DNA of 63,873 nt, counting the filler, from Licmophora abbreviata (Eukaryota), in the NCBI GenBank assembly GCA_900291995.1. It is 13 parts of 13 records of this genome, joined end to end, with 100 filler letters (N's around TTAATTAATTAA, not from the genome) between each part and the next. Parts side by side here need not be neighbours in the genome. Positions count along the whole stretch, not along the records: positions 28,261 to 38,244 come from OLMU01003593.1; positions 38,345 to 46,021 come from OLMU01003594.1; positions 46,122 to 47,740 come from OLMU01003595.1; positions 47,841 to 54,024 come from OLMU01003596.1; 9 more parts are not named here. One strand, given 5' to 3'. Positions 35,703-53,549 of the stretch are shown in pieces. The position numbers and the translations under genes are program-made. The notes below the pieces were generated by a model. It made no database searches, was not told where the DNA came from, and was given only the letters and a program-made list of their open reading frames with translations. Position 1 is the first letter of the stretch. Each line of letters opens with the position of its first letter.

Positions 35703-37867
35703 CTAGAAGGGTACATCTTTGTAGTCTTCAGGTTGGGGAATTGAAGCCTTTGGGCGCTTGTTGCTTCGTCGGGCGGGCCTTTTTTTGGCTTCGGGAGCCT
35801 TCGCCTGGGCTTGATCCCGCTGCTTCAAGCGATCCCCAAAACGTCGCTTGAGATCCCTGAATCCCATATTCTCGTACAAAGCGAGCATTCTGTCTCCGTC
35901 AATCGCTTCCATTTGCAAGTCGGCGACGCTGCCAACTTCTTCCGGAAATGTCATGTTGGCTATCGGAATATCGCGATCCAGCTCCACCAGTCGTCGCGAC
36001 AGTTTCGCCACGTCGACACTAGCTTGAAGCTTTTCTCGGCGACCCTTTTGTTTCACTTCATCGAGGCTCTCCAGCAAGTTATCAAGTGTGCCGAACTCGT
36101 CAAGAAGAGACGCGGCAATCTTAGGACCGATGCCCTTAACGCCGGGAACATTGTCGGAGCTGTCGCCAGCAAGAGCGAGCACATCACCGACCAATTTGGG
36201 CTCTACGCCCCACTTTTCCACGACCACATCATGCGTGACACGAGACATGCTGCCGGGATCAATCATGTGGATTGCCGGCGTTGCGTCCCTTTGAATTGAG
36301 GGTAAGACGTGAAAAAAGTATGAGCAAAGGGGTTTGCAAAATTATTATGTGTGCATAAGTTCTGTACTTACTCGGCTGTAACGAGTTGCATGAGATCCTT
36401 GTCCCCGGACAGAATATCAGTGTTGACTCCTTCTCGAAGTGCCATTGTTGCAAGCGTCGCAATAACATCATCCGCTTCGAAAGACGGTGCCTCCAGCTGA
36501 TGAATTCCGTAAGCTACGGCCACCTCGCGAATCAAATCAAACTGTGGGATAAGATCCATGGGGCACTCAGGTCGATTCGCCTTGTAGTCATCGTACATGT
36601 CGTGCCGAAAAGTCCTGCCTTTTGCGTCGAACACGAGGACAAGTCGTGGCCGCTCGCCCTGTAACAACCGATTTAGTACCAACCGATTCAGCATGTTACA
36701 GAAGCCTAACACTGCTCCGATAGGTGTACCATCAGCTCGGTGCATCGGCGGCATCGAGTAGTAGGCACGGAATATGTACGCCGACGCGTCCACGAGAAGG
36801 AGCGGGTCGTCCTCATACGGCAAATCACTATCCGCCGCCTTCTTGTCGTTCACTCTTGAAGGCGACGGCGCCGGCGAAATACTCTTGACGATTCGCCCCT
36901 TCGAAATGTCGTCTTCTTTCTTTTCTTCTCGTGCAATGGAACGCACGCACTGGCGAAACTGCAGTATGAGATCGGCCATGCGATTACCCGCCCCTCCCAT
37001 GGCCTCGAGTGCTTCCTTGTTTGTCGACTGACCTGCCGACCCATAGAGGATTTCTGAAACTTGTTTTGGACTTTTAATGTTGAACTCCTTCCCATTGTTT
37101 TGAGCGTAAATTTCTTGTTCCAGCTGCTTCATCTTGCTCTTGAGCATGTCCGTCGTGGAAGTGATGGCTTGACCAGACGCCGCCTTGTCGTAGACGCTCT
37201 GTCGGTCGGAGATGGAGACGGAGGCAGTACCATGAAAGGTCGATCTTGGGGGCATGGGAAGTTTTGGGGCGAACTGGGGCCTTGGTGGAGAAGGCATCAC
37301 CGTGCTACCAGAGTCGTCCCACTCGGCCGACTGTGCCGGAATGTATTCGCCGACCGAGATAGTAGGTGGAGCAGTGGGGGGAGCAGTGGAGCCACCATCA
37401 TCGTGCAAATGGGGCTGATAGTCGTACGCCCCAAAGTCGTCAACACCCCCCAAACCATTCTCATAGCCATGGCTGCTCTCGAAGGACTCCAAGGCGGGAG
37501 GCATGGGCCTTGCCCGAGGAGGCAATGCATCGTTGCGTACCGGCATGATCGACACTCGAGTAGGATCTTCATCGTCAGCCTGGGAATCCTTGGAAGGCCC
37601 GCTATTGACAGGAGCGCGATCGTCCGGAGATGACGGCTCCAAGATTGCATCCCACCCCGCGAACGGTTGGTGAGACTCGGCCTTGTCGTCGGGTTTGGGT
37701 GCATTGGACATGTGTCGAACTGTAGCTAGTACTGATTGCCGGGAAAATCGAGACGACGTCCTCGACGCGTAACCAGGAGGAGCAAATGCCAATTCGGACG
37801 ATAGCCTTCTGACCCTCATTGATTGCATTGAAAAACGTGAAACTGACGATACTGAAACAGCCCACAT
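35703..37867 (-). CDS. Stand-alone Pol I-type 5'-3' exonuclease (flap endonuclease), organelle-targeted, with upstream polymerase-thumb-like segment
   Basis: LLLVDASAYIFRAYY, VFDAKGRTFRHDMYDDYKANR, FEADDVIATLA, ILSGDKDLMQL, ALAGDSSDNVPGVKGIGPKIA; stop follows with no polymerase domain; intron about 36292-36369. Confidence 0.93.
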
Positions 37868-38344
37868 AATTGATGAGATCAGAGGTCGAGTCCACTTAGA
37901 AGAGCGTAGCTTCAGAATCTCGGTCAGCTCAGATTTCATCGCCGCAGGAGCAACGACGTCGACTTTTTTATCCGCTCTGACTTGGTCAAAACAACTTCAC
38001 AGCCAATGAATTCTGTTGTAGAGAAGCTGTCGGTACCCTAGACTACCATCAGAGAGCCGAGACGATAGAATCCCTTTGTGTCATTGTGTCGCGACGGTGC
38101 GCCATGGCGACAGAAAAGCATTCTAGCGTGCGAACAGTATAGCGCGGAGGCTCGCGCGAAGAACCTCGATTCACGATGAGGTCGAATGTACCGGGGGTAC
38201 AAAATGGAAAGGCCTATCATAGCAACTGTATCTTTCTGCCTTCGNNNNNNNNNNNNNNNNNNNNNNNNNNNNNNNNNNNNNNNNNNNNTTAATTAATTAA
38301 NNNNNNNNNNNNNNNNNNNNNNNNNNNNNNNNNNNNNNNNNNNN

Positions 38345-38861
38345 CTTCGTAGCCTCCAAGGCTAGTTCGATAAGAATCGGGGATGCTTCCGACTTGGCCA
38401 CAACAATATCATGAGCGACTGGCATGACAGGAATGGCAGGTGCAACTTCTCCAAGGCGGTCCCTTGGATACACCCACAAGTTTTCCGTCCTGAACTAGAG
38501 CTTTCGCGGATTCGACGGTATTGTATTCAAAGTCTTCAAATGCCGTCGACACCACGTACAAATCAAAGTCCCTGGACGATTCCAAATACAATTCATTGGC
38601 AAGCGGAAGAGCGTGTATATGACATCCCGGACAATTTGGCTGAATAAGCAAGCCTATTTGCAAGTCTCTCGTGAGATCAGCCGCGGATCCTGCAAGCCAT
38701 TCTAGAGCGTTCAGAGGCGGAAGAGTGATCATCTTTCGTGGCACAATTGAAGCACAACTCGAGGCTCGAGACGTCGATGCGACCAAAGCTCTCATGTCCC
38801 GTGGACCATTACCGTCAAATGACCGAGTCTCTTTAGGTGGGAAGCAAGATAATATGGTCAA
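38345..38861 (-). CDS. Thioredoxin-fold (TlpA/peroxiredoxin-like) protein fragment with probable frameshift
   Basis: LLIQPNCPGCHIHALP CxxC motif, STAFEDFEYN; continues as PVAHDIV in another frame after about 38462; 3' end in gap. Confidence 0.65.
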
Positions 38862-39155
38862 TCGAACACTAGAGAACCCATCATGTGATCGATATCAAAA
38901 CACTGCTCGAGCATCAATCTTGATGTCGCAGGCGCGGTGTGATGTCGCCTGGCGCGATGCTGACGTCACAACACACCATCACAATTGATTGAAAGCCGGA
39001 CCGCTTCGCACGTTCGAACATTTGGGACGAGGCAAACACTGTCAATGCGTAACTCGTACTATATCTCTTGTTAACTCCTCTCCGATGACTTCAGAGTCTC
39101 CTAGAAAACTACGCCCAAGCTTTGCCACAGTTCCGAGCAGCCAATTGGAAATAGC

Positions 39156-40214
39156 TTACGCACCGTCCTCGCTCGAAATCTGAAGCGTGCCTTCATAGAA
39201 AATGGGCTCCGGCGGCTTAATCCACAGAGGTTGCGGAGGCTTGGCTGTGGTCTCTCCCTTATCCGCGTCCTTCTTTCCGTGAGACTGCTGAAAGGCACTT
39301 CCTGTGCGCCAGTTGTCAAAGGCTTGGCGATCCCTCCAAATGGTAGTGCTCACATAGGACGGATCGCCGCTACTCATCGGCACCGTACCGTGGCCCTTCT
39401 GCGATGCATCCCGCCGCAACATGGTGAATGCCAAGAAACCGTCGCATTCCTTGAGCTTGGATTCACGTTGAGCCCAACGCTGTTCGAAAGCAATAGCGTT
39501 TTCGGGTGGGACAAAGAATTGGTTGCATGCGACAAAACATTCGGATGGAAGCGTGTTGATTCCATCAGCTTCGACCGACCGCCAACCATCGACAATCTCA
39601 GGGACGGTCTCAGGTTTAACACTTTGTAAGAGAATACTATCGTAAAAGGCAGGACGAGGCGCTCCACGCAGTACCAGGGCACTGTTCACCATGGTGGACA
39701 TGAATGCTCCGATCGACGTGCCTCCGTGAGCTTCCTTGAAGGCTTCCCCCGTGCGCCACGCTGAAAAGTCACTCTTTCGCTCCCAAATCGTAAACGACAC
39801 ATAATTTCCAGCCATTGTGTCGTCTGAATCACCTTCCATGTATGTGCAGGTCCCATCTTCATTGAGCGTCACTCTGCGCATGAGGTGAAAGTACCTGAAT
39901 CCGTCCAATTCACTGAGTCTACTCTTGCGAGTCGCCCAGCGCTTTTCAAATTTGGCCGCCTTGCCCGCTCTTACAGCAAATCGATTCGTCGCAATGTATC
40001 GATCCCGTTTGATCAATCCCTTGCTAGTCACTGCGTCGGTACTATCTGCTGGGGCAGTCGTGGACATGCAGAGCGGGTTGGCGGTGGTGACCGATGGACG
40101 ACTCCTCAGCACTAGACGGGTGGCATGACTGGATTGAGTGAATCCTTGCACGCTTGCCACCAGAGCCACCACCACTACCGCACTGCAGACCAGGGCACAC
40201 AACGAGAACATCAT
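39156..40214 (-). CDS. Tandem ABM-domain (IsdG/HmoA-like) monooxygenase, plastid-type presequence
   Basis: Two repeats: YIATNRFAV...FEKRW...GFRYF...TIW...FSAWR...FKEAH and FVACNQFFV...FEQRW...GFLAF...TIW...FDNWR...FQQSH; signal ends VQG-FTQS. Confidence 0.85.
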   Translation of the reverse strand: MMFSLCALVCSAVVVVALVASVQGFTQSSHATRLVLRSRPSVTTANPLCMSTTAPADSTDAVTSKGLIKRDRYIATNRFAVRAGKAAKFEKRWATRKSRLSELDGFRYFHLMRRVTLNEDGTCTYMEGDSDDTMAGNYVSFTIWERKSDFSAWRTGEAFKEAHGGTSIGAFMSTMVNSALVLRGAPRPAFYDSILLQSVKPETVPEIVDGWRSVEADGINTLPSECFVACNQFFVPPENAIAFEQRWAQRESKLKECDGFLAFTMLRRDASQKGHGTVPMSSGDPSYVSTTIWRDRQAFDNWRTGSAFQQSHGKKDADKGETTAKPPQPLWIKPPEPIFYEGTLQISSEDGA

Positions 40215-40558
40215 GGTCGTCGATAGAAACAATGGGTCAATCGACAGCCACCGCCTTCTGTCGCGCTGACTGTGACGACGTGTGATCGCGGCGCGCGATG
40301 AGTTTTGGAGCGCAAAATCTTTGTCGTATCTTCCCAATCGTCCACAGATGTATCCCTGCTCGACACATTCCTCATTCCGTATCTCTGATGACTCCGGGTT
40401 TTTGATTCCCGCAAACTTCATTCCCCCTGTCACGAATGGACGAGCCAGCCGCGCCATTTTCAGTCTTTTGTAAAAAACCCAATCTTGTGTGTGTTGTATG
40501 GTCCGCATCACTTCTCTTGCATATGGACTAGTCGTAGACGCTGTTGTCGATCTTCATA

Positions 40559-41497
40559 ATGGAAACACTCGCCAATATCGCGTTGGCAGCCTCCAAGCTG
40601 GAAGCGGTTGAGCGTGTACCAATATCCAAGACTTCGATGGGCGAAGATCGTCTCGATACAGGCAAGGAAGAGTCACCTGGTTTACAATCACGAGTCGTGC
40701 CGCCGCCACCAGCGAAGCATCCCTTCTCGGCTCGGCGTGTCGTCTCTATAGATTCTACCTCGTCCTTCCAACTCCAACCACCTTCTTCTGTGATGTCTGC
40801 GGACGATGCTGTCGTCGAGTACGAACCCAAGTCCGAGTTGGACCCTCCACCACCATCTCCGTCTCCTAACGACATCATTTCGTACGTACTAGACGACGAC
40901 GTCTTGTGCGGACGTGGGGGAGAGACCAACCACCACATGGGAAATATTCGCTACCGTTCTCTTGTAAAGCAGTTTCAACGAGGCTATCTTAAGGCCAAGC
41001 GTCGAGACAAGCCCAAGATTGCTCGCATGATTGTCGACACGGTGAGGCGCCGAGGTGGTCGCTTCCTGAAGAAGGATCCTTCCTTCAGTGCAGCGTGGAA
41101 GGATGTAGGGAACGTCAAGGCGCGTGAGAAGACTAGTCAGGCTCTACGTGAAGGGGCACCGGAACTCCGCAATGAAGAAACTACGTCGTCGGAGGAAGAC
41201 TTCTACTTGAGTGCTATCAACGCGACTGCCCCTCACGTGGTGGAGCTCACGCCCCCAACAACCATCGAATCCAAGAAACGCAAGTTTCATGCTGCCTCCA
41301 AAAGCTTGTCGCTCATGGAGGCAACAATGGTGTCGCCCACACCATCTAACACGTCGCTAGAAACAACAATGGGGTTCGTAGGAGCGACCGTGTCGGCTGA
41401 CGACGCCGACGACTCGGCAGGGGAAAACGAGCTGAAGAAGAGCTTTCGTGGTCCGCGTCTCGCTATTCTGAAGAAGCGCTTGAGCATGTCTGGCTAA
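40559..41497 (+). CDS. DUF6824-domain protein (diatom-expanded putative regulator)
   Basis: DVLCGRGGETNHHMGNIRYRSLV...GGRFLKK...W...KAREKTSQALRE. Confidence 0.88.
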   Translation: METLANIALAASKLEAVERVPISKTSMGEDRLDTGKEESPGLQSRVVPPPPAKHPFSARRVVSIDSTSSFQLQPPSSVMSADDAVVEYEPKSELDPPPPSPSPNDIISYVLDDDVLCGRGGETNHHMGNIRYRSLVKQFQRGYLKAKRRDKPKIARMIVDTVRRRGGRFLKKDPSFSAAWKDVGNVKAREKTSQALREGAPELRNEETTSSEEDFYLSAINATAPHVVELTPPTTIESKKRKFHAASKSLSLMEATMVSPTPSNTSLETTMGFVGATVSADDADDSAGENELKKSFRGPRLAILKKRLSMSG

Positions 41498-41710
41498 GGC
41501 AGTTAACAGATTAACATGTGTATTACATGGACATAGACCTCCTAGAGAGACTTTTCCCTCCCTAGCCACGAAATTGATGTTCCGCAATCCCGTCAAAAAA
41601 GCTGTGTTGGTTTCGTCCATAAGTAAAGTTTTTGGTGTTCGTGTAAATGATATACGGGCAAGTATACAATTTGTCGTTGGTATTTCCGTTCGAGGAGCGC
41701 GCCATTTTTG

Positions 41711-44091
41711 CTATTGAGAAGGAAAGCAGACCGAGCAACAGTCGCAGGCCAATTCTGGTGGATCACCGCCACAATCTGCCGACAGTACCCGTAGAGGAAA
41801 CGTTCGGAGATCGCAAATACCTTCCGGCATAGTTCCTTCCAGCTGAGTCTGGCTCAGGTGTAAGACCTCTGTACCAGTAATCGAGACAAGTTAGATGAAG
41901 TGTACACATCTCAGTTATAAGTGACCACAATCTCATTGACTTACCGAGATTCGTCAGCAACCCCAAGCGAGATGGCACGATGCCGATGAACTCATTTCTC
42001 CATAGGACGAGCTGTTCCAAATTTGGTAGCTCCGCAAACCGCCTCGAAATGTTCCCCCTGATTGTATTGTTCCCCAAATTTAGTAACGTCAGTGAAGTTC
42101 CAGAGTCGAAAAGTTCTTCAGGAATTCTCCCAGTCAGAAGGTTGCTGGAGACATCAAACACTGTCAAAGTGTCCATGAACAGAGACCCCGACAAGCTCCC
42201 CGTTAGGGCATTGTTGTCGGCCGTGAAAGATTGCAACAGTGACAAAGCACCTAGTTCGGTTGGAATCGAACCCGATAATGCATTGTTGCCCACGTCAATG
42301 TTGATTAGCTTGGGGGACTTTTCACTCAAGGTCGGCGGCATCTCCCCAAATATGGCATTGTCCCCAAGATCCAGGTGCTGCAGTGAGCGAACGAAAATTT
42401 CCTGAGGAATGGTTCCGTCGAGTAGATTGTTACCCAGATGCAAGTACCAAATAGAAGAAAGCGATCCGAGTTGATCTGGAATTGTACCTGATATCTGGTT
42501 GCGATTCAGGAGCATCACCCGCAAGTACTGCAACCTTCCCAGATTGGTTGGTATGGTCGACGACAAAGTATTTCGACTTAAAATCAAAGACTCTAGTCGA
42601 GAAATCTCACCAATCTCCCGTGGTAGCTCTCCCTGTAGCCCGTTCTCTCCTGCGTCCAGATGAAACCGAGGCGTTAGGACAGGGGAGCAAAACAGGCTTG
42701 ACAAGCGATCAAGATAACTCACTCAAATTAACTGTCGTCACAACACCTTCGTTGCACGAAACTCCCAACCATTGGCATTCCGTGGTCCCTCCCAAGAATC
42801 TGCGACTGTCCACATCGCACCGTGTTCCATCTCCAGGTTGTCCGCATCTTAGCCATGTGTTGTCACCATTCGTCGAGTAGTACAGGACAGCTAGTATGTA
42901 CCGCTGCTCGATAGCTGGGCTGTCGGAAGCTAGAAGCTGTTGTGGATCGCCAAACAGAATCCATTGATAAGCCGCAAACTGTGGAGTGGACTTATCCAGG
43001 AGCTTCAAGACGCCCGAGATTTCAACGCACAAAGCCATAATGTCCTCTTGCCGCTGATCGCCACCACCTGAGGAAGATGGAATCGGTGTGAAACTTACCG
43101 GCGTCGATGTTGGTCCAAGAGGAGATGGTGTCACGGCGAAAGGCCTCGCTGTTGGCAACGATGAAACGATTGGCATAGTCGTGGGTGAAGGTGGGGATAT
43201 CGGCGGCGTCCCGGTGGGAGGGCGGGTACGAAACGATGGCTCGCGGGTTGGCGACGGTGTCACATTGTTTGTCGGTGCCGGTGAGACTGTCGGGGCCACC
43301 TCCTCGCCACCATCACTATTCCTCCGCACCAGCACAATTGCAACACTGGCCGCAATCAGACCGATAGCCACCAGCCATCCAAAAGCAAACAAAAGTCTGC
43401 GTCTCCTTCGACGCCTCAAGCCTCTCGTCTTGTCTTCAAAGTTTCGAGCATCTTGATCCTCTGGTACAACGCCAAGCTCTAGGCTCATGGAAGCCTGAGA
43501 CTGGTTGAGATGAGGATCGCTATCAAGGTCATCTTGCTGTAGGTCATGTTGCGAATCACTGTGCATACTCAGACTCATGCTGCCCCATCGCGACGATATC
43601 CCGCCGTTCCCACGAGACGAAGCAGCCAGCGCGGCAGCGGCCGCCTGCACCAAGGGCGACGCCAGTAACGCCGCTCGGCTGCGGGGACCATCTTCAATAT
43701 CCTCGTCGCGTCTTGCATCCTCTTCAATCTCTTGTAATAAGCGCCGCTCTTCGGATGTGACCGATTCGTTAAAATCAATTGACATGTCCTCGTCAAATTC
43801 TTGTGATTTCGCCATCGCTCGCTGTGTGATGGTCGATGAGAACCTCACCGCGTTGACCGCCGATGCCCTCGCATCTCCTCCAAAGGACTCTTGCGATGGA
43901 TCGGATGAGTTCGATGCAGTGTTTTCTTCTTCCAATTGTCTAGAAGTCGTCACATAGTCATCGTCGCCGTCCCACGACTGCGCTTTCGTTGTCGGAGCTG
44001 CGTCTTTCGGTTCTTCTGGGTAGAATGAAGAGACGATTGTCGACTCTTCCTCACTCCTATCGTTTCTGAGTATACCGTCGTCGTATTGCAT
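41711..44091 (-). CDS. Type-II membrane leucine-rich-repeat protein (diatom receptor-like family), two introns
   Basis: Acidic N-tail, RRRRRRRLLFAFGWLVAIGLIAASVAIVLV TM, P/T linker, QRYILAVLYYSTNG, ECQWLGVSC, about 10 NxLxGxIP repeats, C-terminal CDCCSVC. Confidence 0.9.
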
Positions 44092-44484
44092 GATCAACGA
44101 AGCAAGATGATGCGTTTTCGTAGCATACCAACAAAAAATGTGACGGCACACGGTGATTGAAGCGAATGAATGACTTCACAAAAGCGTTGGGACGATATTG
44201 ACCGTATCCCGAAAGTATCAAACAGGCCCATCGAATTGCCCAACGCATCGAATTCATATAGTAATTTTCGTATATATATATACTATATTGGGAGTCGTAG
44301 GAGGGCCAGACCGTATTGTCCGCGCGCAGCACGACAAAATCGCGCACACAGCCACTCAAAAGAGGATGCGGACAGAAAACACACAACCACATCACAACCA
44401 TGGCGGTGTATTGTCGATCAGTCATCACTGTGTGTCCAATCCCGTAAAAACGACGGCGCAAGCTGTTGCGAGGCTCACCGTATC

Positions 44485-45189
44485 ATGGAAAGTCTCAGTG
44501 ATGAACGACCACCCCAGATTCTACAAGGCGAAGGAGCAGGCCTCGGCAAGCTGCGCGGACTGGACGCATCAGCCTTGGACGCAGCATTCCCCGAGGTGCG
44601 AGTAGCAGAGGACGAACGGGTGTTTCCAGAAGCAAGAGGAATGATCGTGACTGCCAGCTGGAAGATTGACGAGGATCAGTCGCTGCCGCAGGACTTTCAG
44701 GATGCCGCTGGCCACGCCATTGTCACTTCGGAGCGTCTGCTGTTCGTGTCAGAGTCGGATCTAAATAAAGATGTCGCAGTGGATGCGGCTTGCATTTCGC
44801 TGCATGCCATGTCTGATGAGCCAGTTTCAGTCTATGTACAGATACAGGATGTACAAGCGGAAGAGATGTGTCCCATTGAACTTGTCATGGCCCTATCAGA
44901 CAAGACTGACTGCGAGAAGCTATTTGAGGCACTGTCGAAACTCGTCACGATGCATCCAATCGAGGTGGACGACGATGAAGATGGGGACGATGGAGGGAAT
45001 GGCCTTGGGGGCATGATGGTAGCGCCAGAGATCGACGATGGGGCAACTGAAGAGGAGCGGGAAGCCATGCTGCAGCGGCTCGATAATATGCTGGTTGTAC
45101 CTCCTCAATATGAAATGCGTGCGGGGCAGTTTGATGATCCGGACGAGGAAGACCCAGAAGGGGGAGACGAAGGTGACGACATACTGTAG
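44485..45189 (+). CDS. pICln / methylosome subunit (CLNS1A, Voldacs domain)-like
   Basis: GHAIVTSERLLFVS, ISLHAM, VYVQI, LFEALSKLVTMHP, AMLQRLDNML, GQFDD acidic tail. Confidence 0.8.
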   Translation: MESLSDERPPQILQGEGAGLGKLRGLDASALDAAFPEVRVAEDERVFPEARGMIVTASWKIDEDQSLPQDFQDAAGHAIVTSERLLFVSESDLNKDVAVDAACISLHAMSDEPVSVYVQIQDVQAEEMCPIELVMALSDKTDCEKLFEALSKLVTMHPIEVDDDEDGDDGGNGLGGMMVAPEIDDGATEEEREAMLQRLDNMLVVPPQYEMRAGQFDDPDEEDPEGGDEGDDIL

Positions 45190-45218
45190 CACCACTAACG
45201 TTCGCTACTAGTCTTATC

Positions 45219-48200
45219 CTAATTCATGCCCTTGTTTGCCAGTCTGAAGCCGGCTTTTGACAGTCGTTCAATGACCAGTGTTTCGGCTTCCCGGGAATCT
45301 GATTTTCCGCCAGAGATTGGGATGGCCGTGGCTTGGAGTCGGGACCATGGCCCGCCCTTGGCTCGGTGCTCGCGGACGCGTCGTTCCAACGAATCAGTTT
45401 CTCCCACATAGAAGAGCGGTGATTCGGAGTCAATCTTCAAAATGTATAAACAAGATTGACCCTCCAAGGAAGGTGGCGAGTGGAACGTCGGTGGAATGTG
45501 ATGAACTGGTGCACTCCACCCTGTGACCTCCTGCGCGATCTCAACTGCTCGAGCGAGAGTGGCCCTATGTGCGACACTGGGTTCAGCTGCAACCTCCGTG
45601 GAGATGCTAGGTAGCATCCCATCGGCATTGAGTGACTCCGAAAGATCAGCAGCACGACTTATAATGTCATTTGGAAGACCAAATCGCGCAGCCGTGACCA
45701 AGGCAAGGCTGTTTCGGCAAACACCGTCTTCGAGTTGATATGTCCACTGAAAATCGGCTTCTGTGGCCATGCGTTTCCTCTTGATCCGGTCGGCTCCTTT
45801 CAGTGGAAGATCAAGAACACCATGGAGGTGGGTAGCAAACACGCCGCACATGCCAGCTGTACTCATAGCTTCCAACAGAGCTCCCGCAAGAGAGGTGCCA
45901 TCCTTGGGCGACGTGCCGCGACCTAGTTCGTCCACGAAGACGAGAGATTGTGACCCGCAAGATCGAAGAAGTGATGCAATGTCGCCCATTTCAGCCCCAA
46001 ACGCCGATTTCTCTTCAGTAGNNNNNNNNNNNNNNNNNNNNNNNNNNNNNNNNNNNNNNNNNNNNTTAATTAATTAANNNNNNNNNNNNNNNNNNNNNNN
46101 NNNNNNNNNNNNNNNNNNNNNCTCGAACGAAGATGTTGTCGAAACGACGAACGACAGAGCCGGGACCGAGTGGCGCACAAAGCCCGCAGTTGGAGAGCAA
46201 CGCTGCTGCCGCCGTTGATCTCATTAACGTAGATTTGCCTGACATATTCGGAGCTGTCAATAGAAATAGTCCATCAATGTCAAACGTATTGCTGACAGCT
46301 GCATTTCGCTTCATCCAATACGGCCAAACGCGGTTGAAGCTGCCTGCGTCCGCCCGATCGTCCTCGACTCTTGCCATGTGCCATCCGAGCTGATTCGCAT
46401 TGGCAGCATGGTGGAATGCCGTCGATAGAATCAGATTCGCATGAGCAGCTTGGACAATCGCTGGAAGGTGCCCTTTTTCGCAAAGACTCTTTCCAAGCCT
46501 GAACAAGGCGTCGGTCACGTCCATGCAAGCTCTATCACATGCCGCGACGTAGTCTGCGAGAGCACTTTGCACGTTGTCCGTGGTATAACGGTTATGAAGA
46601 ATCTTGCCGTTACGATCCCTGGGATGGCGGTAGCTTGTGTCCGGATCGTCGGCCCATGCAGGCTTCTCTTTTATTGCGATAATGTTGTTGAAGATGTCTT
46701 GCACAATTGGGCTCTTCTTATCGGTCGATTGAGATATGCACCTTGAAATGTTCATGCCCTGCTCCATACCCCAGAAATCTTCGGCAACGGCCTGCGCTAG
46801 ACGTCCAGAAGAGATACGAACCGCCTCGTATGCCTCTGGAGCGGCAGTAGACCGGACTCGACCGCGCCAGTGAAGTTCGTTTCTCTCCAAAAAAGCGTAA
46901 GGAACTAGATCGCCAAAGTCGCTGATGCGGTCGTCTGCAACGCCACTTTCGTTGTTCGCCATCCGACTGGCGTGATGCAATGGACTGACGATAGTTTCGA
47001 TCACTCCCGCTGCCTCCAAGCACCGACGTCGCAGAGAGTCGGAATCTGACGCGATTCCACTCTGATGCTGCAAAATTTTCATCAAGGCCGGGACCAGTTT
47101 GCTCTCGTCGTCGGTTGTGGCCATATATTCTTCGATGACAAACACAGTGGAGGAGATGGCAGCTAACAAGGTTCCATAGACCTGTGCGCTCGCCTGACCA
47201 GCATGAAGAAGCGAATTGATCTTTCCGACGGGCGGGACAGTCATCGCCGGCATGGGTATCCCGTTGTCCTTGAGAGTTGACACCAAGCAAGACATCGCAG
47301 TCGCAACCGATGACGGCGGCGGAATCAGCAACCACTGACGGAGAAATCGACGCGTAGCCGCGGGTGCCGAAGGTAGCAAAAGATAGGATACCAGGTCGGG
47401 GATGGCCTTGTCACGCATAAGTCCCAGCTGTGTAGCAGTTTCCGCGTATAGCGGATTCAGTCCGTTGTCTCTTATCGATGACACGGCGGCGAAATCCTCG
47501 ACGCTTAAGGGAGTGTCGGAGTCTTCAGTATGCCCAATAACGTCCGCAAGAGAGCTCACAATGATGTTTCGGGCGCGTTCAACTTCCGAAACGCCATGCC
47601 TTGGTGCTTCCACCGTTGACGGAGACAATGTTTGTGTTCTGAGACGAGAGCCGGGCCCCTCTCTCGAAGCATCAGATCGCGATGGTAGAAATGGCAATCG
47701 GACCGACTCTCTCTCAACGTCAGATTGCAAAGGGACATAGNNNNNNNNNNNNNNNNNNNNNNNNNNNNNNNNNNNNNNNNNNNNTTAATTAATTAANNNN
47801 NNNNNNNNNNNNNNNNNNNNNNNNNNNNNNNNNNNNNNNNCTGGTGGATAGGCCGTGAGTCGGCATGCAACGGCTTCGGCAGTGAGTTTTTCCGACACTC
47901 GAGCCGTTCGTTCCTCCACGGATACTTCGACGAGGGTGTACCCAGCAGTGGTTGATATGACTCCCATGTAGGGCCGTGCGGCGGGAGCTGTACCAAGGAC
48001 ATCGGCATTCTCTAGCTGTAGGTTGTACATGTACGTCGGCGTCGCCGAAGAAACGGTTTGCGCCCACATACGCGTTTTTAAGCGAGACTTTGCTCCTGCA
48101 GACGCACCTGCGCCCAGCGACGAGTCCGTGTCTACAGTCTCTTCGTAGACCTCGACACGAAAGCCTTTTTCAGTGAGACAATCTAGGGTTGCCTGTACAT

Positions 48201-49301
48201 TACGAACGGGGCAACCAGCTTTGGCCTTTCCGCCCATTGGATTCAAACCGCAGTGCTGCGTCATTGAAGACAACGAGCGCACAACGATGAGATATTAACA
48301 GATCGGCCAACTCGTCTGCAGAGCTTGCAGCAATGGTCTTCACGTACCTCCACCAGCATGACGGCGTCGACACCGTACGTTTCATAGAACTCGCCCACCC
48401 GCGTCAGAATTATGGAATCTCGGTACTTTTCTTTTTGCTCGCGTACGTAAAATAGCAGCGAGCCCTTCTTTATAACCTTTGGAGACATAGCGGTATCGCT
48501 GCTACGCAGCAAATCCATCGGTGATGCATCGGGATCATATCCAATGGGACATAGCTGAGAGTTCAACTGCGCTACCATAGAGCGAGCCGATTGTTTGGTG
48601 ACCTGCAAGAGAGCTTCTCTCCAAAACTCTGACATTCGACAGCCCCGCCCGTCAAATAACGCGTCAACCATTTGTCCATAGGACACTGCTACCTTTTTTT
48701 TTGACACTCCATCGACTACAGTCTCTTCTTGAATTTCTTCTGATTCGTTCTGTAGCTCAATGGCAGTGGAAAAGTTTGCAGCAAGTCCCGATGCTTCATG
48801 GCGCGATGCTTGAACGGACTTTCGCGTCAAGGTCGATTGCTTGGAAAGCTCCCGGTACTGAATCACCAATGATGCGAGCTTTCTTCGATGGGAATCCATT
48901 CGTTCAGCATCCATGGCCTCAAGCAGTACTGATCTCGACGTGCTTTTCGTGTCGTCTCCGAATAGCGCCATGGCGACTTGCTTGGGACTGTTGGCGTTGA
49001 TAGGTCGGCCGTCATTCAGGTCGGCAATATCCCGCTCGATCGATTGGAGCTGGCCGTCGATGGAGTCACTCGATCCGAGCGGAGAATTCTTGGAGTGCAA
49101 GGATGACTGAAAAGAGGCCGCAGAGAATCGAAAACGTGTCGGAAGATCACTGTTCGTCATTCTTCTGGTGGGGTGTTGCAGACACCGCCTGGCACCGAGC
49201 GCCATTCGTGATGGTGTTTGCATGGGGTAAGCTCCGACAGTCGAAAGAAAGTCCCAGAGCAAAGCGAATAGCAAAAATACACTACTATCCAAGGCCTTCA
49301 T
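45219..49301 (-). CDS. MSH1: Plant-type organellar MutS homologue with C-terminal GIY-YIG endonuclease, spans two gaps
   Basis: LTRVGEFYETYGVDAVMLVE-HCGLNPMGG-KAGCP (intron 48256-48347), LTAPNMSGKSTLMR, FVDELGRGTS, FATHLH, CLYIL...FYVGETDSLERRVREHR. Confidence 0.92.
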
Positions 49302-49649
49302 GCGAGGGCCGTAGTTTTAGATTTCAGAGTGCCCACTGACTCACGGGAACCAACGCGAAGCCGACGACAGCCTTGTCACCATGGTCACTTTGTGATGGCG
49401 CGTCTTGTTGGCCGATCACAGAGTGTGTGTTGGTGGAGGAATGGAATATGGTATACATGGTCGAATACCTCTGATATGATACACGCAACACTGGCGCGAC
49501 AAATTTATGGCGCGCCGGTTTTATCTGGAGCGCGGAGCGCGAATTGATCAGACAGGTCGGAACAGACCATAAGAGTTTCAACTTAGGCACCGACGCCATT
49601 TCAAGTCAATTCTTTGACCGACTCTAGACTTTATGCCTTCGTAACAATT

Positions 49650-50021
49650 TTACTTATTCGTTTTCCTTTCAGCACTCAACAGCTCCCGATATTGCAATAC
49701 CAGTGACGCCAATTTTCGTCTGTCGGGATCCATCGTTTCTGTTTCTATTGCTTCCAGCAGAGCTCTGCGATTTGTGCTTTTCGAACGTACCCCAAAGACC
49801 GCAACTGAAACCTGCTGGGGGCTTTTTGGATTTATTGGATCGCCACCATTCAAGTGCACTATGTCGTTCTCAATTGATTCGAGTTGATTTTCGATAGAAT
49901 CGGTAGATGCATGATGCGTAAAAGAAGTAGCCGACGGATCGACTCTCATAGTGTCGGCTGTTTCTTGCGGAAGAGTTTCTGTGGGCGCGCTTGTTTCATC
50001 TGGTGCAGTGTAAGAATTCAA
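49650..50021 (-). CDS. Polymerase-thumb-like ORF, probably the frameshifted C-terminus of the PPR gene
   Basis: Overlaps the PPR ORF end; 45 of 73 residues identical (hand count, ungapped) to the MSH1 N-terminal segment. Confidence 0.7.
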   Translation of the reverse strand: MNSYTAPDETSAPTETLPQETADTMRVDPSATSFTHHASTDSIENQLESIENDIVHLNGGDPINPKSPQQVSVAVFGVRSKSTNRRALLEAIETETMDPDRRKLASLVLQYRELLSAERKTNK

Positions 50022-53000
50022 GAGGAAGAGCGGCAGAGGGTAAATCGATTTCGTCCGTTTCTACAGTTTCGATCGGAAGAGTCGAAGTGAGTACATTCAT
50101 ATCCTCCGTATAATCAGATCCGAACCCAAGTAGCGAAGTCGATTCATTGCTTTCTGAGGTGTCGGTGGCATCGGCTGGGCGGGCAGGCGCCGTGGAAACA
50201 TTCATGTCATCCGTGAAATCAGATCCGAACCCAAGTAGCGTAGTGGATTTATTATTTCTCGTAGTGTTGGTGGCATTGTGCGGACGTGTAGGCGCCGTGG
50301 ATACGTTCATATCCTTCGTACAGTCAGATCCGAACCCAAGTAGCGTATCGGATTCATTGCTTCCTGAGGCGTCTGTGACATCCGGTGGACGGGCAGGCAC
50401 CACGGATACGTTCATATCCTCCGTGAAATCAGATTCGAACCCAAGTAGCGTATCAGATTCATTGCTTCCCGAAGTGTCGATTACATCGGGCGGAAGGGCA
50501 GGCACCGTGGGCACATGCATTTCATCAGTGTAGAGAGATCCAAGCCCAAGGAGAGTTTTAGATTCACTGCGTTTCGTAGCTTTGGCAGAAAATTTGAGCG
50601 GAAGAGCAGGCGCCTTGGGCACTTTCATTTCCTTAGTGTCATGAGGTCTGAAGCCAAGGAGTCCACTGCTTTCCGCAATGTCGGTGAGCTCGGGCGCTAG
50701 GTGTGTATCAGACACGGTAGTTCTTGCAGTGGTGGAAGACGTCGGTGGAAGGGGTGCAACGGAAACATGGCTTTTAGTAGTTTTGTCAGATTCGGGCGGA
50801 AGGGGTGAAGCGGATACCTTGGTCTTCGCAATTTCGACGGCTTTGGGTTCAATAGCTTTAGCGGGAAAGCTGATGTTCGCAGTTTCCCCAGATCCTGGCG
50901 AAACGTGTGAGGAAGGCGCACGCGATGCCGTGATTTTCGCGGTCTCGAATGATCCAGACGGCAGAGGAGAAGCATGTACAATGGGTTTTTGAGTTTCGAT
51001 TGACTCAGGTGGAAGTATTTTTGAAGTTGGAGACTTAGTCCGACTTTCAGTGTCCTGATCTTCGTAAATCAAATAAGACAACTTGTTCATGTGAAGCACA
51101 TGGCTGAGGCCCTTTATGGCAAGCTTCGAATCAAGAATCTGTCGCGCAACCTCTTTTACCCGCGCTTTGCGAGCTTCGGGAGACTGTATCAAGTTCGTGC
51201 AGCACCACAGAAATGTTCGAAATGTTGTTTGATTGGGAGCGAGACCACGATCGAACAATTGCTCGTACACGCCATTCGCGATATCAAAGGCCTCCGCTTT
51301 GTCGGATTTCTTCGTGACGTAGTTGCAAACAGAAAGCACTAGATTGTACGCATCGACCGTGGGACGGAGCCTCTCGTTGTACACCGACGACGCAACCTGG
51401 AGCTCGAAGTCAGATAGATTGCTCAGAGACGCCACAGACATGTCCGCAACACCACTCTGAGCGTTCATACTCTCGAGGAGGCGGAGACTCTTCCGCGCCT
51501 CCTCTACTTTGCCACGAGACTTGGCCGTGTGCCGAAATCGTCCAAGTGCCCAGAGATAAACAGATGAATCCATATGAATCTCGTCACGATCGTCTTTCGG
51601 TAAACCTAATCGCCGGATCTCCAGCATAGACAGCCATTCTTCTGGAGAATCTTCGCTGCCAAGAAGCAAATACTTGAATGTCTGTTGATTTGGCCACGTT
51701 GCAGCGCATCGTGTCATCTGATCAAAAATATCCTGAGTGTACTCGCTTCTACGAGGATGGCTCCCTAAAGCTTTCAAGAGCGCATTGTAAGTGTCAACGT
51801 TGGGATACTGCTTGATCTTGTAGTACCCATTGGAGTTGCTTTCCGACCGCGCTCTTTCCTGCACATACTCCATGCATCGAATAACGGAAATGGCATTATT
51901 CAACTTCGTCTCGCTACTAGATCCAGCATAGATCAAAATGAGATTGTGCAGTAGAGCCGGGCTGAATTTGTTTTGTAAGAACCCATGCTGTTTCGAGGGC
52001 GGATGAAAGTTTATAACGTGATCAAATTTTTCTCCACCTAGTCGTTTCATGAGGAACTCTACCCGTTCACAAAGATCAGGCACAGCTGTGATTCCAGCGT
52101 TGCGGTACGCTTCTAGCAAAATGCGGTAGTGCGTCCCCACCTTCTTGCTATCGCCTGACGCTTCTTCTCGCTGAATGACCAGTTGTTCTGCTCGTTTGGC
52201 TGCCTCGGCACGATTCGACAGTGAATTGTCGAATGAGGCGGCTGCTTGGAAGGCATAGAGTAGCGGCGAGAATGCCGAGAACATGGAGACTCCTCTTTGG
52301 TTCGCAAAAAGATTGTAGACGCGTTCCGCTTCCAGAGCAACCTCGAGGGTCCCGATTTGCTGGTGCGACTTTAAGACGAGACCCAAGGTCGGCTCTGTAG
52401 GAATGAGATCCAGTTCCTTCATGATTTCGAGCAGGGCTACCATGCGATGGGATCTCTCCAAACATTGTTCAGTAGAGAGGCCCCTTCGGTCTTTTTCGCG
52501 CTCGTCACTGACACTCGGATCATCGTCGTTGTCTTCGTCTTGCTCATGAGCGATAGTTTGTGCAGCGATAGTCTTGTACTCTTCATCAATGCACGTAATG
52601 ATGCGGCTAATAGTAGAGGATGACGGCCCAAAGGCTTCGCCTTTATGCGCCTCCAGCTTCGATTGGTCAGTCGATGCTTCACGCTTACTTTCTTCCTCAT
52701 CTCCCTCCGTCGATGTGACGAACACATTCCGAAACCAAGATTTCCACCTTTGGATATAAGTCTGCCCCGCCGGCGCCTTATCAATAAGCTCTGCTCGATC
52801 CTTTCGAAGCACAAGCAAAGCATGCAATAGCTGTTCTGCCACCCTACTCAGACTCTCTTCTTCAGTAGCGGGCGACGACTGGGACCGAATCATGGCAATG
52901 GACGAGACAGCTCGATCCAAGAAAATGCAAATGTGTCGAAACGCCTCCTCCGTCTCGTATAACTTTTCCATGGGAACCGTCTGTGTGGGGTCTGATTTGA

Positions 53001-53549
53001 GCTCGTGCAGGCTTTCAAACATGGATAGCAAGTCTTCCTTTCCTGCAAGTCCATCCATACTAGACCGAGGCGGACATGCTGCGTCCGGGTAGAGTTTTGT
53101 ATGATAATTTCCAAGCAATCGAAAGCATTCATTTTGCAGTGTCGAGAGCTGGTCTTTGGTCAAACGATGAGAAGGCTTCGTGTCGTGATTTTTGCTTTCG
53201 CGGATGCGGGGCTTTCTCACCCCATTGTTTCTTGGTCGGAACGCATCGACAGCGTCAATTCCATTCTTGCCCTTGGACCGTCGTCGGCCCCGATCTTCAC
53301 CGTCGGATGTCGGTTTGCTACTATTTTTGCTTTCGTTGGACTCGCGCTGGGGTCGATATGCGTCGGGCACGTAGTATCGTTTCTGGTCATGAGGCAGCTC
53401 GACAATGACGGTACTGGTGATGAGTACTGATGACTAATTCGTCCCAGAGACATACTATCAGTGACAGGCCTTTCCGGAATTTTCAGTCGGATAGGCGCAG
53501 AAGAAGCGATGCGGCGTCGAAGGAGGACGCATCGTACTGTAGCGCTCAT
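49996..53549 (-). CDS. Pentatricopeptide-repeat-like protein, probably mitochondrial, with C-terminal tandem repeats
   Basis: PPR-like helices YPNVDTYNALLKALG, WPNQQTFKYLL, RPTVDAYNLVLSVC, GLAPNQTTFRTFLWCC; Arg-rich presequence MSATVRCVLLRRRIASS joined by a probable +1 indel near 53383. Confidence 0.75.
50095..50690 (-). repeat. Coding tandem repeat, 105-bp (35-aa) unit, four conserved plus about two degenerate copies
   Basis: TCAGAT(C/T)CGAACCCAAGTAGCG starts at 50114, 50219, 50324 and 50429; protein unit SNESDTLLGFGSDxTEDMNVS..PARP. Confidence 0.92.

Follow-up and report, generated by a model that had tools for sequence, protein, structure and literature searches.

We analysed a stretch of 63,873 nucleotides from Licmophora abbreviata (assembly GCA_900291995.1), in which parts of 13 records are joined end to end with filler between them and which is called the window in the following. 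The window contains three related segments that resemble the thumb subdomain of DNA polymerases from family A, for example DNA polymerase I (Pol I). The first lies in a gene for a Pol I-type 5'-3' exonuclease, the second in a plant-type MSH1 gene, and the third in a small open reading frame (ORF) between MSH1 and a PPR-like ORF (Table 1). The three peptides that were quoted for these segments in an earlier note on this DNA do exist at their positions but belong to the minus strand, the plus-strand translations being full of stops. The three segments are real.

Table 1. Thumb modules, their carrier genes and the neighbouring PPR-like ORF, in positions of the window
Feature	Coordinates	Strand	Remarks
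Pol I-type 5'-3' exonuclease/FEN gene	35703-37996	minus	PF02739 + PF01367
Copy 1, thumb module (exonuclease type)	36911-37162	minus	residues 279-362 of ORF 36368-37996
Plant-type MSH1 gene	45219-49301	minus	ATG 49301-49299; MutS_I, MutS_V, GIY-YIG
Copy 2, thumb module (MSH1 type)	48807-49073	minus	residues 82-170 of ORF 48261-49316
Copy 3, thumb module (MSH1 type), between PPR-like ORF and MSH1	49653-49913	minus	in ORF 49650-50060
Smallest self-contained copy 3 reading	49650-49949	minus	ATG 49949-49947 to TAA 49652-49650, 99 codons, read from the sequence
PPR-like ORF	49996-53433	minus	long acidic Ser/Thr-rich repeat tail; neighbour, not a demonstrated module carrier

The limits of the modules were taken from the alignment to a profile named A2, which was built from 23 module sequences, the three copies of the window among them. 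A six-frame scan of the whole window with A2 gave exactly three matches, with E-values of 2.2e-36 for copy 1, 2e-30 for copy 2 and 4.2e-29 for copy 3; these values are inflated because the three copies belong to the profile, and the independent figures are those from Pfam. No fourth copy was found in the six frames of the window with A2, the next best match having an E-value of 0.58. Against the Pfam family PF00476 (DNA_pol_A) copy 1 reaches 37.6 bits (E 1.7e-9) and exceeds the cut-off of 34.3, while copy 2 (25.7 bits, E 6.7e-6) and copy 3 (19.3 bits, E 5.9e-4) stay below it. Copy 1 covers positions 4-86 and copy 2 positions 8-108 of the 381 positions of this family, and all three copies are restricted to a range from 4/8 to 86/108, which is the thumb part in the first ~90 positions. 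Copies 2 and 3 share 57% protein identity, and copy 1 is 28% and 34% identical to these two.

Two carrier genes

The exonuclease gene consists of a first exon, which is the ORF down to 36372, an intron of 83 nt at 36371-36289 (GTAAGT...AG), and a second exon at 36288-35703 that includes the stop codon. The start is not fixed, as Met codons are found at 37939, 37867, 37828, 37819 and 37711. After splicing, the only stop of the frame is the terminal one, and the product aligns up to the last residue with the full-length relative P0013 (303 of 535 positions identical). Matches to PF02739 (E ~7e-47) and, in the next exon, to PF01367 (E 1.3e-28) reveal a PIN-like nuclease domain together with an H3TH (SAM-fold) domain, so that the protein has both domains of OEX-like nucleases. 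Copy 1 is located 40-odd residues N-terminal of the exonuclease domain. The N-termini of the carrier proteins are putative organelle presequences, judged by general rules for such signals.

OEX1 and OEX2 of Arabidopsis are described as organellar 5'-3' exonucleases/flap endonucleases derived from Pol I (10.1101/2024.11.05.621957). Like these the algal protein is a free 5'-3' nuclease (PIN-like plus H3TH) of Pol I descent and would serve organelle DNA. The plant N-terminal extensions are described in the same preprint as targeting sequences only (10.1101/2024.11.05.621957), whereas the algal protein has a thumb upstream of the nuclease. A further feature of exonuclease-type proteins lies upstream of the module, at ~37350-37480 on the minus strand in the window and also in P0013, P0014, P0077-P0079 and P0124. 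It is a common acidic-aromatic motif G-x-Y-D-Y-x-P, just preceded by a stretch P-P-x-L-[DE]-S in low-complexity surroundings, and it may be a short docking motif.

The MSH1 protein begins with a hydrophobic N-terminus, which is followed by copy 2, MutS domain I, MutS domain V and GIY-YIG, and the full-length relatives P0027 and P0031 show the same domain order. Its Pfam matches are MutS_I with 26.5 bits (cut-off 20.6), MutS_V with an E-value of 1.1e-22, and GIY-YIG with 24.0 bits (E 4.7e-5, cut-off 22.6). MutS I and V combined with a C-terminal GIY-YIG place the gene among the plant-type MSH1 genes, with parts of it masked by four runs of N (46022-46121 and 47741-47840). Across the window such runs occur as twelve pairs of 44 bases with 12 bases between the members, at irregular spacing; MSH1 contains two of these pairs, and another is situated a little upstream of the exonuclease ORF, which makes parts of these genes unreadable. 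The spacer between copy 3 and the start of MSH1 is covered by one contig of run X1, which has, at position 49541, 19 bases fewer than the window; the likely promoter of MSH1 may thus differ between strains or carry an indel polymorphism here.

The plant-type MSH1 family has been reported from stramenopiles in a preprint (10.1101/2020.02.13.947598). While MutS I, MutS V and GIY-YIG are all present in the gene of the window, as in plant-type MSH1, the N-terminal Pol A thumb module distinguishes it. That an organellar MutS acquires an accessory domain at its N-terminus has a precedent in the MutS1 of Viridiplantae, which is described as fused N-terminally to a DPD1-like 3'-5' exonuclease (PMC11275761). 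That case concerns another MutS subfamily and a catalytic accessory domain, in contrast to the non-catalytic thumb that was added to MSH1 here.

Thumb homology, missing polymerase parts and conservation in relatives

When the profile is made of the three window copies only, the Bst Pol I large fragment is matched in the PDB (E 7e-5). With A2, 63 PDB sequences are matched at E<=1, and the best 60 of these 63 are all family-A polymerases, including Bst Pol I (E 1.9e-10), Klenow (1.7e-4), Taq (2.4e-4, residues 463-540 of 1taq) and Pol theta (3e-4). The nearest clusters to the module in the ESM Atlas are short PF00476 fragments, with a score of 0.95.

The AlphaFold2 model of copy 1 (mean pLDDT 94.7, pTM 0.82) has four helices at residues 3-21, 32-40, 49-57 and 61-84, and that of copy 3 (pLDDT 90.8) has helices at 3-22, 33-41, 50-58 and 64-87. 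Both predicted models exhibit the helix plan of the thumb, i.e. a long H, short H1 and H2, and a long I. With copy 1 as query, all 50 Foldseek matches listed are family-A polymerases (TMq 0.67-0.76, rmsd 1.9-3.5). Copy 3 was compared with 48,161 representative chains by a Foldseek-independent structural aligner. The top 9 are again all family-A polymerases, namely Pol nu, Pol I of phage G20c, Klenow, T7, Aquifex, M. smegmatis Pol1, apPol, a Taq variant and DpoZ of phiVC8, with Z of 7.4-9.7, 77-86 of 88 residues aligned and an rmsd of 1.7-2.4. Below them the ranking drops to Z 6.3 and 55 aligned residues.

Two points temper the structural matches. The Foldseek E-values of copy 1, a query of 85 residues, are weak (7.8e-3 to 6.7e-2, none <=1e-3), and the aligner cautions that a Z under ~13 can be due to an arrangement common among helical proteins. 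As helical models often reach such Z by chance, the argument for a thumb rests on the agreement of sequence and fold and not on Z alone. Judged by PF00476, the PDB profile matches and the predicted folds together, the three segments are homologues of the family-A polymerase thumb, and we regard this homology as secure. In this respect the proposal of the earlier note, which the lack of any profile or structural match to the Pol A thumb would have refuted, is borne out.

In comparison to the Pol I thumbs of Klenow, Bst large fragment, Taq and M. smegmatis Pol1, and to Pol nu, Pol theta and T7, the module shows the same four helices in the same order, and the N-x2-S-x2-Q, S-T and (Y/F/H)R motifs of these thumbs are preserved in it. 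It differs from family-A polymerases in standing alone, without palm, fingers and 3'-5' exonuclease. A tblastn search of the window with four complete Pol I proteins matched only the parts corresponding to the 5'-3' exonuclease (aa 3-318) and the thumb (aa ~529-690). No palm, fingers or 3'-5' exonuclease was found in the window by this search, which gave nothing else below E 0.2, and in none of the three ORFs does a match to PF00476 extend beyond the thumb. The statement that palm and fingers are lacking in the window thus holds.

The thumb itself is altered at two places. The loop between the two short helices, i.e. the tip hairpin, lacks ~10 residues in comparison with the true Pol I proteins P0034, P0037 and P0038. 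In place of the motif that connects the last helix with the palm, the exonuclease type has a basic helix and the MSH1 type a low-complexity linker. Because palm and fingers are missing the module cannot polymerise, and from its sequence it is to be considered a thumb-derived domain and not a polymerase.

The architecture is not restricted to L. abbreviata. A word-seeded search with the three copies revealed 34 longer proteins, most of them with the exonuclease domains and a short PF00476 match and three of them MutS proteins; the best module matches are 63-68% identical. An exhaustive profile search over 1.84 billion representatives gave 1538 matches at E<=1e-3, 148 of them at E<=1e-10, and the best 150 of the 1538 were taken. 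The proteins gathered from both searches make up a set of 172 relatives. By BLAST 104 of these group with the exonuclease (including four complete Pol I proteins, P0034, P0037, P0038 and P0176), 38 with the body of MSH1 and none with the PPR ORF, and 30 with neither. Sixteen of the 30 ungrouped proteins were inspected; in at least six the sequence continues into the first residues of the exonuclease domain, and the rest are mostly short or truncated models.

According to Pfam only two partner architectures occur among the 172 relatives, 5'-3' exonuclease or MutS I/V. The module is N-terminal to the catalytic domains in every non-polymerase relative, and the PF00476 match is confined to the first third of the profile. 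The metagenomic locus L002 contains the module and the whole MutS body in one ORF of 1387 codons, which indicates that there the module is translated with the enzyme. The segment is thus conserved in both sets of relatives, those of the exonuclease and those of MSH1, and its absence from such proteins, named for other diatoms in the earlier note as grounds for giving up the idea, is not observed in them. The partial PF00476 match is picked up by automatic pipelines, and some sources name module-bearing proteins 'DNA polymerase-1'. This is a matter for annotation, since the exonuclease gene of the window showed no polymerase active site. Divergent short proteins with the module, P0147, P0165 and P0175, have for example L-N-S-R in place of N-S-P-K-Q as well as other flanks, and may come from other lineages or gene contexts.

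Copy 3 and the neighbouring PPR-like ORF

Copy 3 had been assigned to the end of the PPR gene. This was not confirmed, since it is read in another frame and begins after the PPR stop at 49998-49996. The frame of copy 3 is open upstream to 50060, its only ATG is the one at 49949-49947, and a stop follows directly after the module. GT-AG pairs that would restore the frame between the PPR-like ORF and copy 3 are numerous (96, the smallest enclosing 34 nt), but none of the 96 has a strong donor or one like the GTAAGT of the exonuclease intron. A protein combining PPR and module is also absent from the relatives, as none of the 172 matches the PPR ORF of the window. The claim of three different proteins consequently shrinks to two proteins and a third ORF.

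The PPR-like ORF itself scores 27.2 bits with PPR_3 (cut-off 25) and 26.1 bits with PPR_2 (cut-off 30). Its C-terminal third (~50100-50750, minus strand) is built of imperfect repeats of ~35 residues, L-L-G-F-[GE]-S-D-x-T-x-D-M-N-V-S..., which are rich in Ser, Thr, Asp and Pro, and each repeat has the same weak GT site.

The use of copy 3 as an alternative first exon of MSH1 was considered and rejected. There are 80 in-frame GT-AG pairs, some with a donor AA|GTAAAA at 49653, no acceptor stands out among them, and the arrangement is no better than chance.

Copy 3 could also be a non-functional and untranslated remnant of a local duplication of the 5' exon of MSH1, lying outside the PPR protein. 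The different frame, the lack of a strong splice donor and the lack of a PPR-module protein among the relatives all agree with a remnant, as does the result that at the distant loci L001 and L003 the 4-6 kb upstream of MSH1 contain no second module. Against copy 2, however, copy 3 has a nucleotide identity of 59% over 85 codons with pS 0.85, which means that synonymous sites are saturated, and a pN of only 0.28. The 99-codon frame is still open, for which the chance in random sequence is ~0.009, i.e. (61/64)^99. In addition every residue conserved in the family is kept, and the predicted fold is confident at the pLDDT given above. From these sequence comparisons copy 3 appears to be an old duplicate of the MSH1 module that was kept open by selection, and because it stayed open and conserved for so long it is very unlikely to be dead; a remnant is accordingly an improbable explanation. 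A metagenome scan yielded 13 loci, of which four are MSH1 (L001, L002, L003 and L007); each has one module and none exceeds 43% identity, so that they are too distant to date the duplication.

How copy 3 is expressed can be stated only tentatively. From three runs compared with the window only four short contigs of one run were obtained, with no joints and none across 49650-50060, which says nothing on expression. Expression as a free protein of 99 residues is a plausible option, although less likely than not. It is somewhat doubtful that copy 3 forms the C-terminus of the PPR protein through an unrecognised intron or an assembly error of one base, and rather unlikely that it is part of another transcript arrangement.

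DNA contacts, probable function and origin

The contacts of a family-A thumb with DNA are described for M. smegmatis Pol1 (PMC7102940). The thumb engages both strands across the minor groove; Asn558, Ser561 and Gln564 contact template phosphates, and Thr586, Thr587 and Arg611 as well as the hairpin residues Thr581, Lys582 and Thr583 contact primer phosphates (PMC7102940). In the structural alignment residues 1-88 of copy 3 correspond to residues 531-622 of 6vde_B. Counted along this aligned range N29 falls on 558, S32 on 561, Q35 on 564 and R77 on 611, and S47-T48 stand directly before the third helix, as do Thr586/587 in M. smegmatis Pol1. Of the DNA contacts of the Pol I thumb only those of the hairpin are lost in the module. 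Over 143 complete modules the conservation is 0.99 for N, 0.98 for S, 0.97 for Q, 0.94 for R, and 0.88 and 0.85 for S-T, which are among the most conserved positions. The mean net charge of the 143 modules is ~+2.

The best explanation for these data, to which we assign a probability of roughly 0.6, is that the module is an autonomous four-helix domain of ~80 residues, derived from the thumb, which acts as an accessory grip for duplex DNA. Such a grip is the most likely role because the best conserved residues correspond to the phosphate contacts of Pol I. The module would lie across the minor groove of the duplex and grasp, irrespective of sequence, the backbone phosphates on both strands. 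For this it would use the N-x2-S-x2-Q and S-T motifs, which cap helices, together with the arginine in its last helix. In the exonuclease it would grip the upstream duplex of a nick or flap and thereby restore the hold that was lost together with the polymerase partner, and in MSH1 it would add affinity for the flanking duplex.

The same conservation bears on two other explanations. As the domain is found on functionally linked enzymes, it might serve docking or oligomerisation without any DNA binding, bringing the exonuclease, MSH1 and the copy 3 product together or recruiting them to a shared partner, for instance the organellar polymerase or a nucleoid protein. In Arabidopsis OEX1 interacts with POL1A and POL1B in the yeast two-hybrid system according to the preprint, in which OEX1 is not reported to have the module (10.1101/2024.11.05.621957). 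The strongest conservation of the module is, however, on the phosphate-contact residues of Pol I and not on an evident hydrophobic face, and the module is predicted as a confident monomeric fold, which makes docking a rather unlikely role. A predicted complex of copies 1 and 3 had an ipSAE of 0.00 in both runs, which were made without controls, and is evidence neither way.

According to the other explanation the module would be an evolutionary leftover, a structural or spacer unit between targeting peptide and catalytic domains for which neither DNA nor protein binding is relevant. Its derivation from a dismantled Pol I, the low-complexity linkers of variable length on its flanks and the lost tip hairpin would fit this. 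It is hard to reconcile with a module that is kept in two unrelated enzyme families over more than 140 clusters at 50% identity, with surface polar N, S, Q and R residues conserved at 0.94-0.99, and with a third copy under purifying selection, and we consider it very unlikely.

The source of the duplex grip would be the thumb subdomain (helices H, H1, H2 and I) of a bacterial-type family-A polymerase, whose tip hairpin was shortened by ~10 residues. The thumb was probably first retained while the Pol I gene was reduced to the exonuclease gene, then copied to MSH1, and later, in this lineage, copied again to give copy 3. The thumb and the nuclease that are kept in the algal exonuclease would, we infer, be neighbours in Pol I. 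In tblastn true Pol I matches copy 1 best (45% identity, E 1.7e-10), copy 2 next (35%, E 2e-4) and copy 3 weakly. The order from Pol I to the nuclease gene, MSH1 and finally copy 3 is suggested by this gradation, and by the adjoining nuclease being itself Pol I-like.

Besides the weak Foldseek E-values and the caution on Z, several points weigh against a duplex grip of this origin. DNA binding is deduced from residue conservation, and the same residues cap helices and could be kept for folding alone. In Pol I the thumb works jointly with the palm, and the tip hairpin, which is the source of several primer contacts there, is deleted in the modules. The three copies are predictions from genomic sequence. 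Finally the module is N-terminal to the exonuclease, which is the reverse of the domain order in Pol I; due to this reversed order a simple truncation is insufficient and a rearrangement or permutation is needed.

A more far-reaching proposal can be built on the duplex grip. As a kind of polymerase footprint the thumb could seat the flap nuclease, MSH1 and possibly a free or PPR-linked copy on the fresh duplex that is held, just behind the 3' end, by the thumb of the organellar polymerase. Competition or hand-off at a single site on the DNA would in this way link both the removal of primers and the surveillance for mismatches to replication, and copy 3 would be a trans-acting or RNA-protein-linked member of the kit. 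We regard this as improbable.

In the organelles of plants and algae the work of the bacterial Pol I is divided between two enzymes, a polymerase that lacks a 5' nuclease and a free 5' nuclease. It is still open how these separate enzymes reach the same DNA ends, and a retained or copied thumb would offer a concrete and easily testable answer for this algal group. It seems that the DNA grip of a polymerase was reused as an add-on for other enzymes; if true, part of a polymerase would here, which is unusual, have survived as an independent and reusable DNA-binding domain.

Each component by itself, whether the thumb, the OEX-type nuclease or the plant-type MSH1, is well known. In the literature searched, with subscription journals and supplements outside its scope, we found neither an exonuclease nor an MSH1 described as having a thumb-only module. 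In a term look-up the word 'thumb' was absent from the OEX1 preprint (10.1101/2024.11.05.621957), from 10.1101/2020.02.13.947598 and PMC11275761, and likewise from a review of organellar replication enzymes and a survey of organellar family-A polymerases. The isolated thumb on exonuclease and MSH1 is a real, conserved and apparently undescribed architecture made from a known domain, and not a new kind of system.

The region between the two carrier genes encodes further proteins on the minus strand. An ORF at 39156-40553 has two ABM domains (PF03992, E 6e-22) and a signal-peptide-like start. In P0122, a protein of 211 aa from another organism, a thumb module of the MSH1 type is joined to the last half of a homologous ABM domain; the ABM domain is then another partner of the module, unless the gene model is chimeric, in which case a conserved linkage would be hinted at. 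Two ORFs for leucine-rich-repeat proteins are located at 41763-44175, between MSH1 and the ABM gene, one of them with a Pro/Thr-rich stalk and a transmembrane-like stretch.

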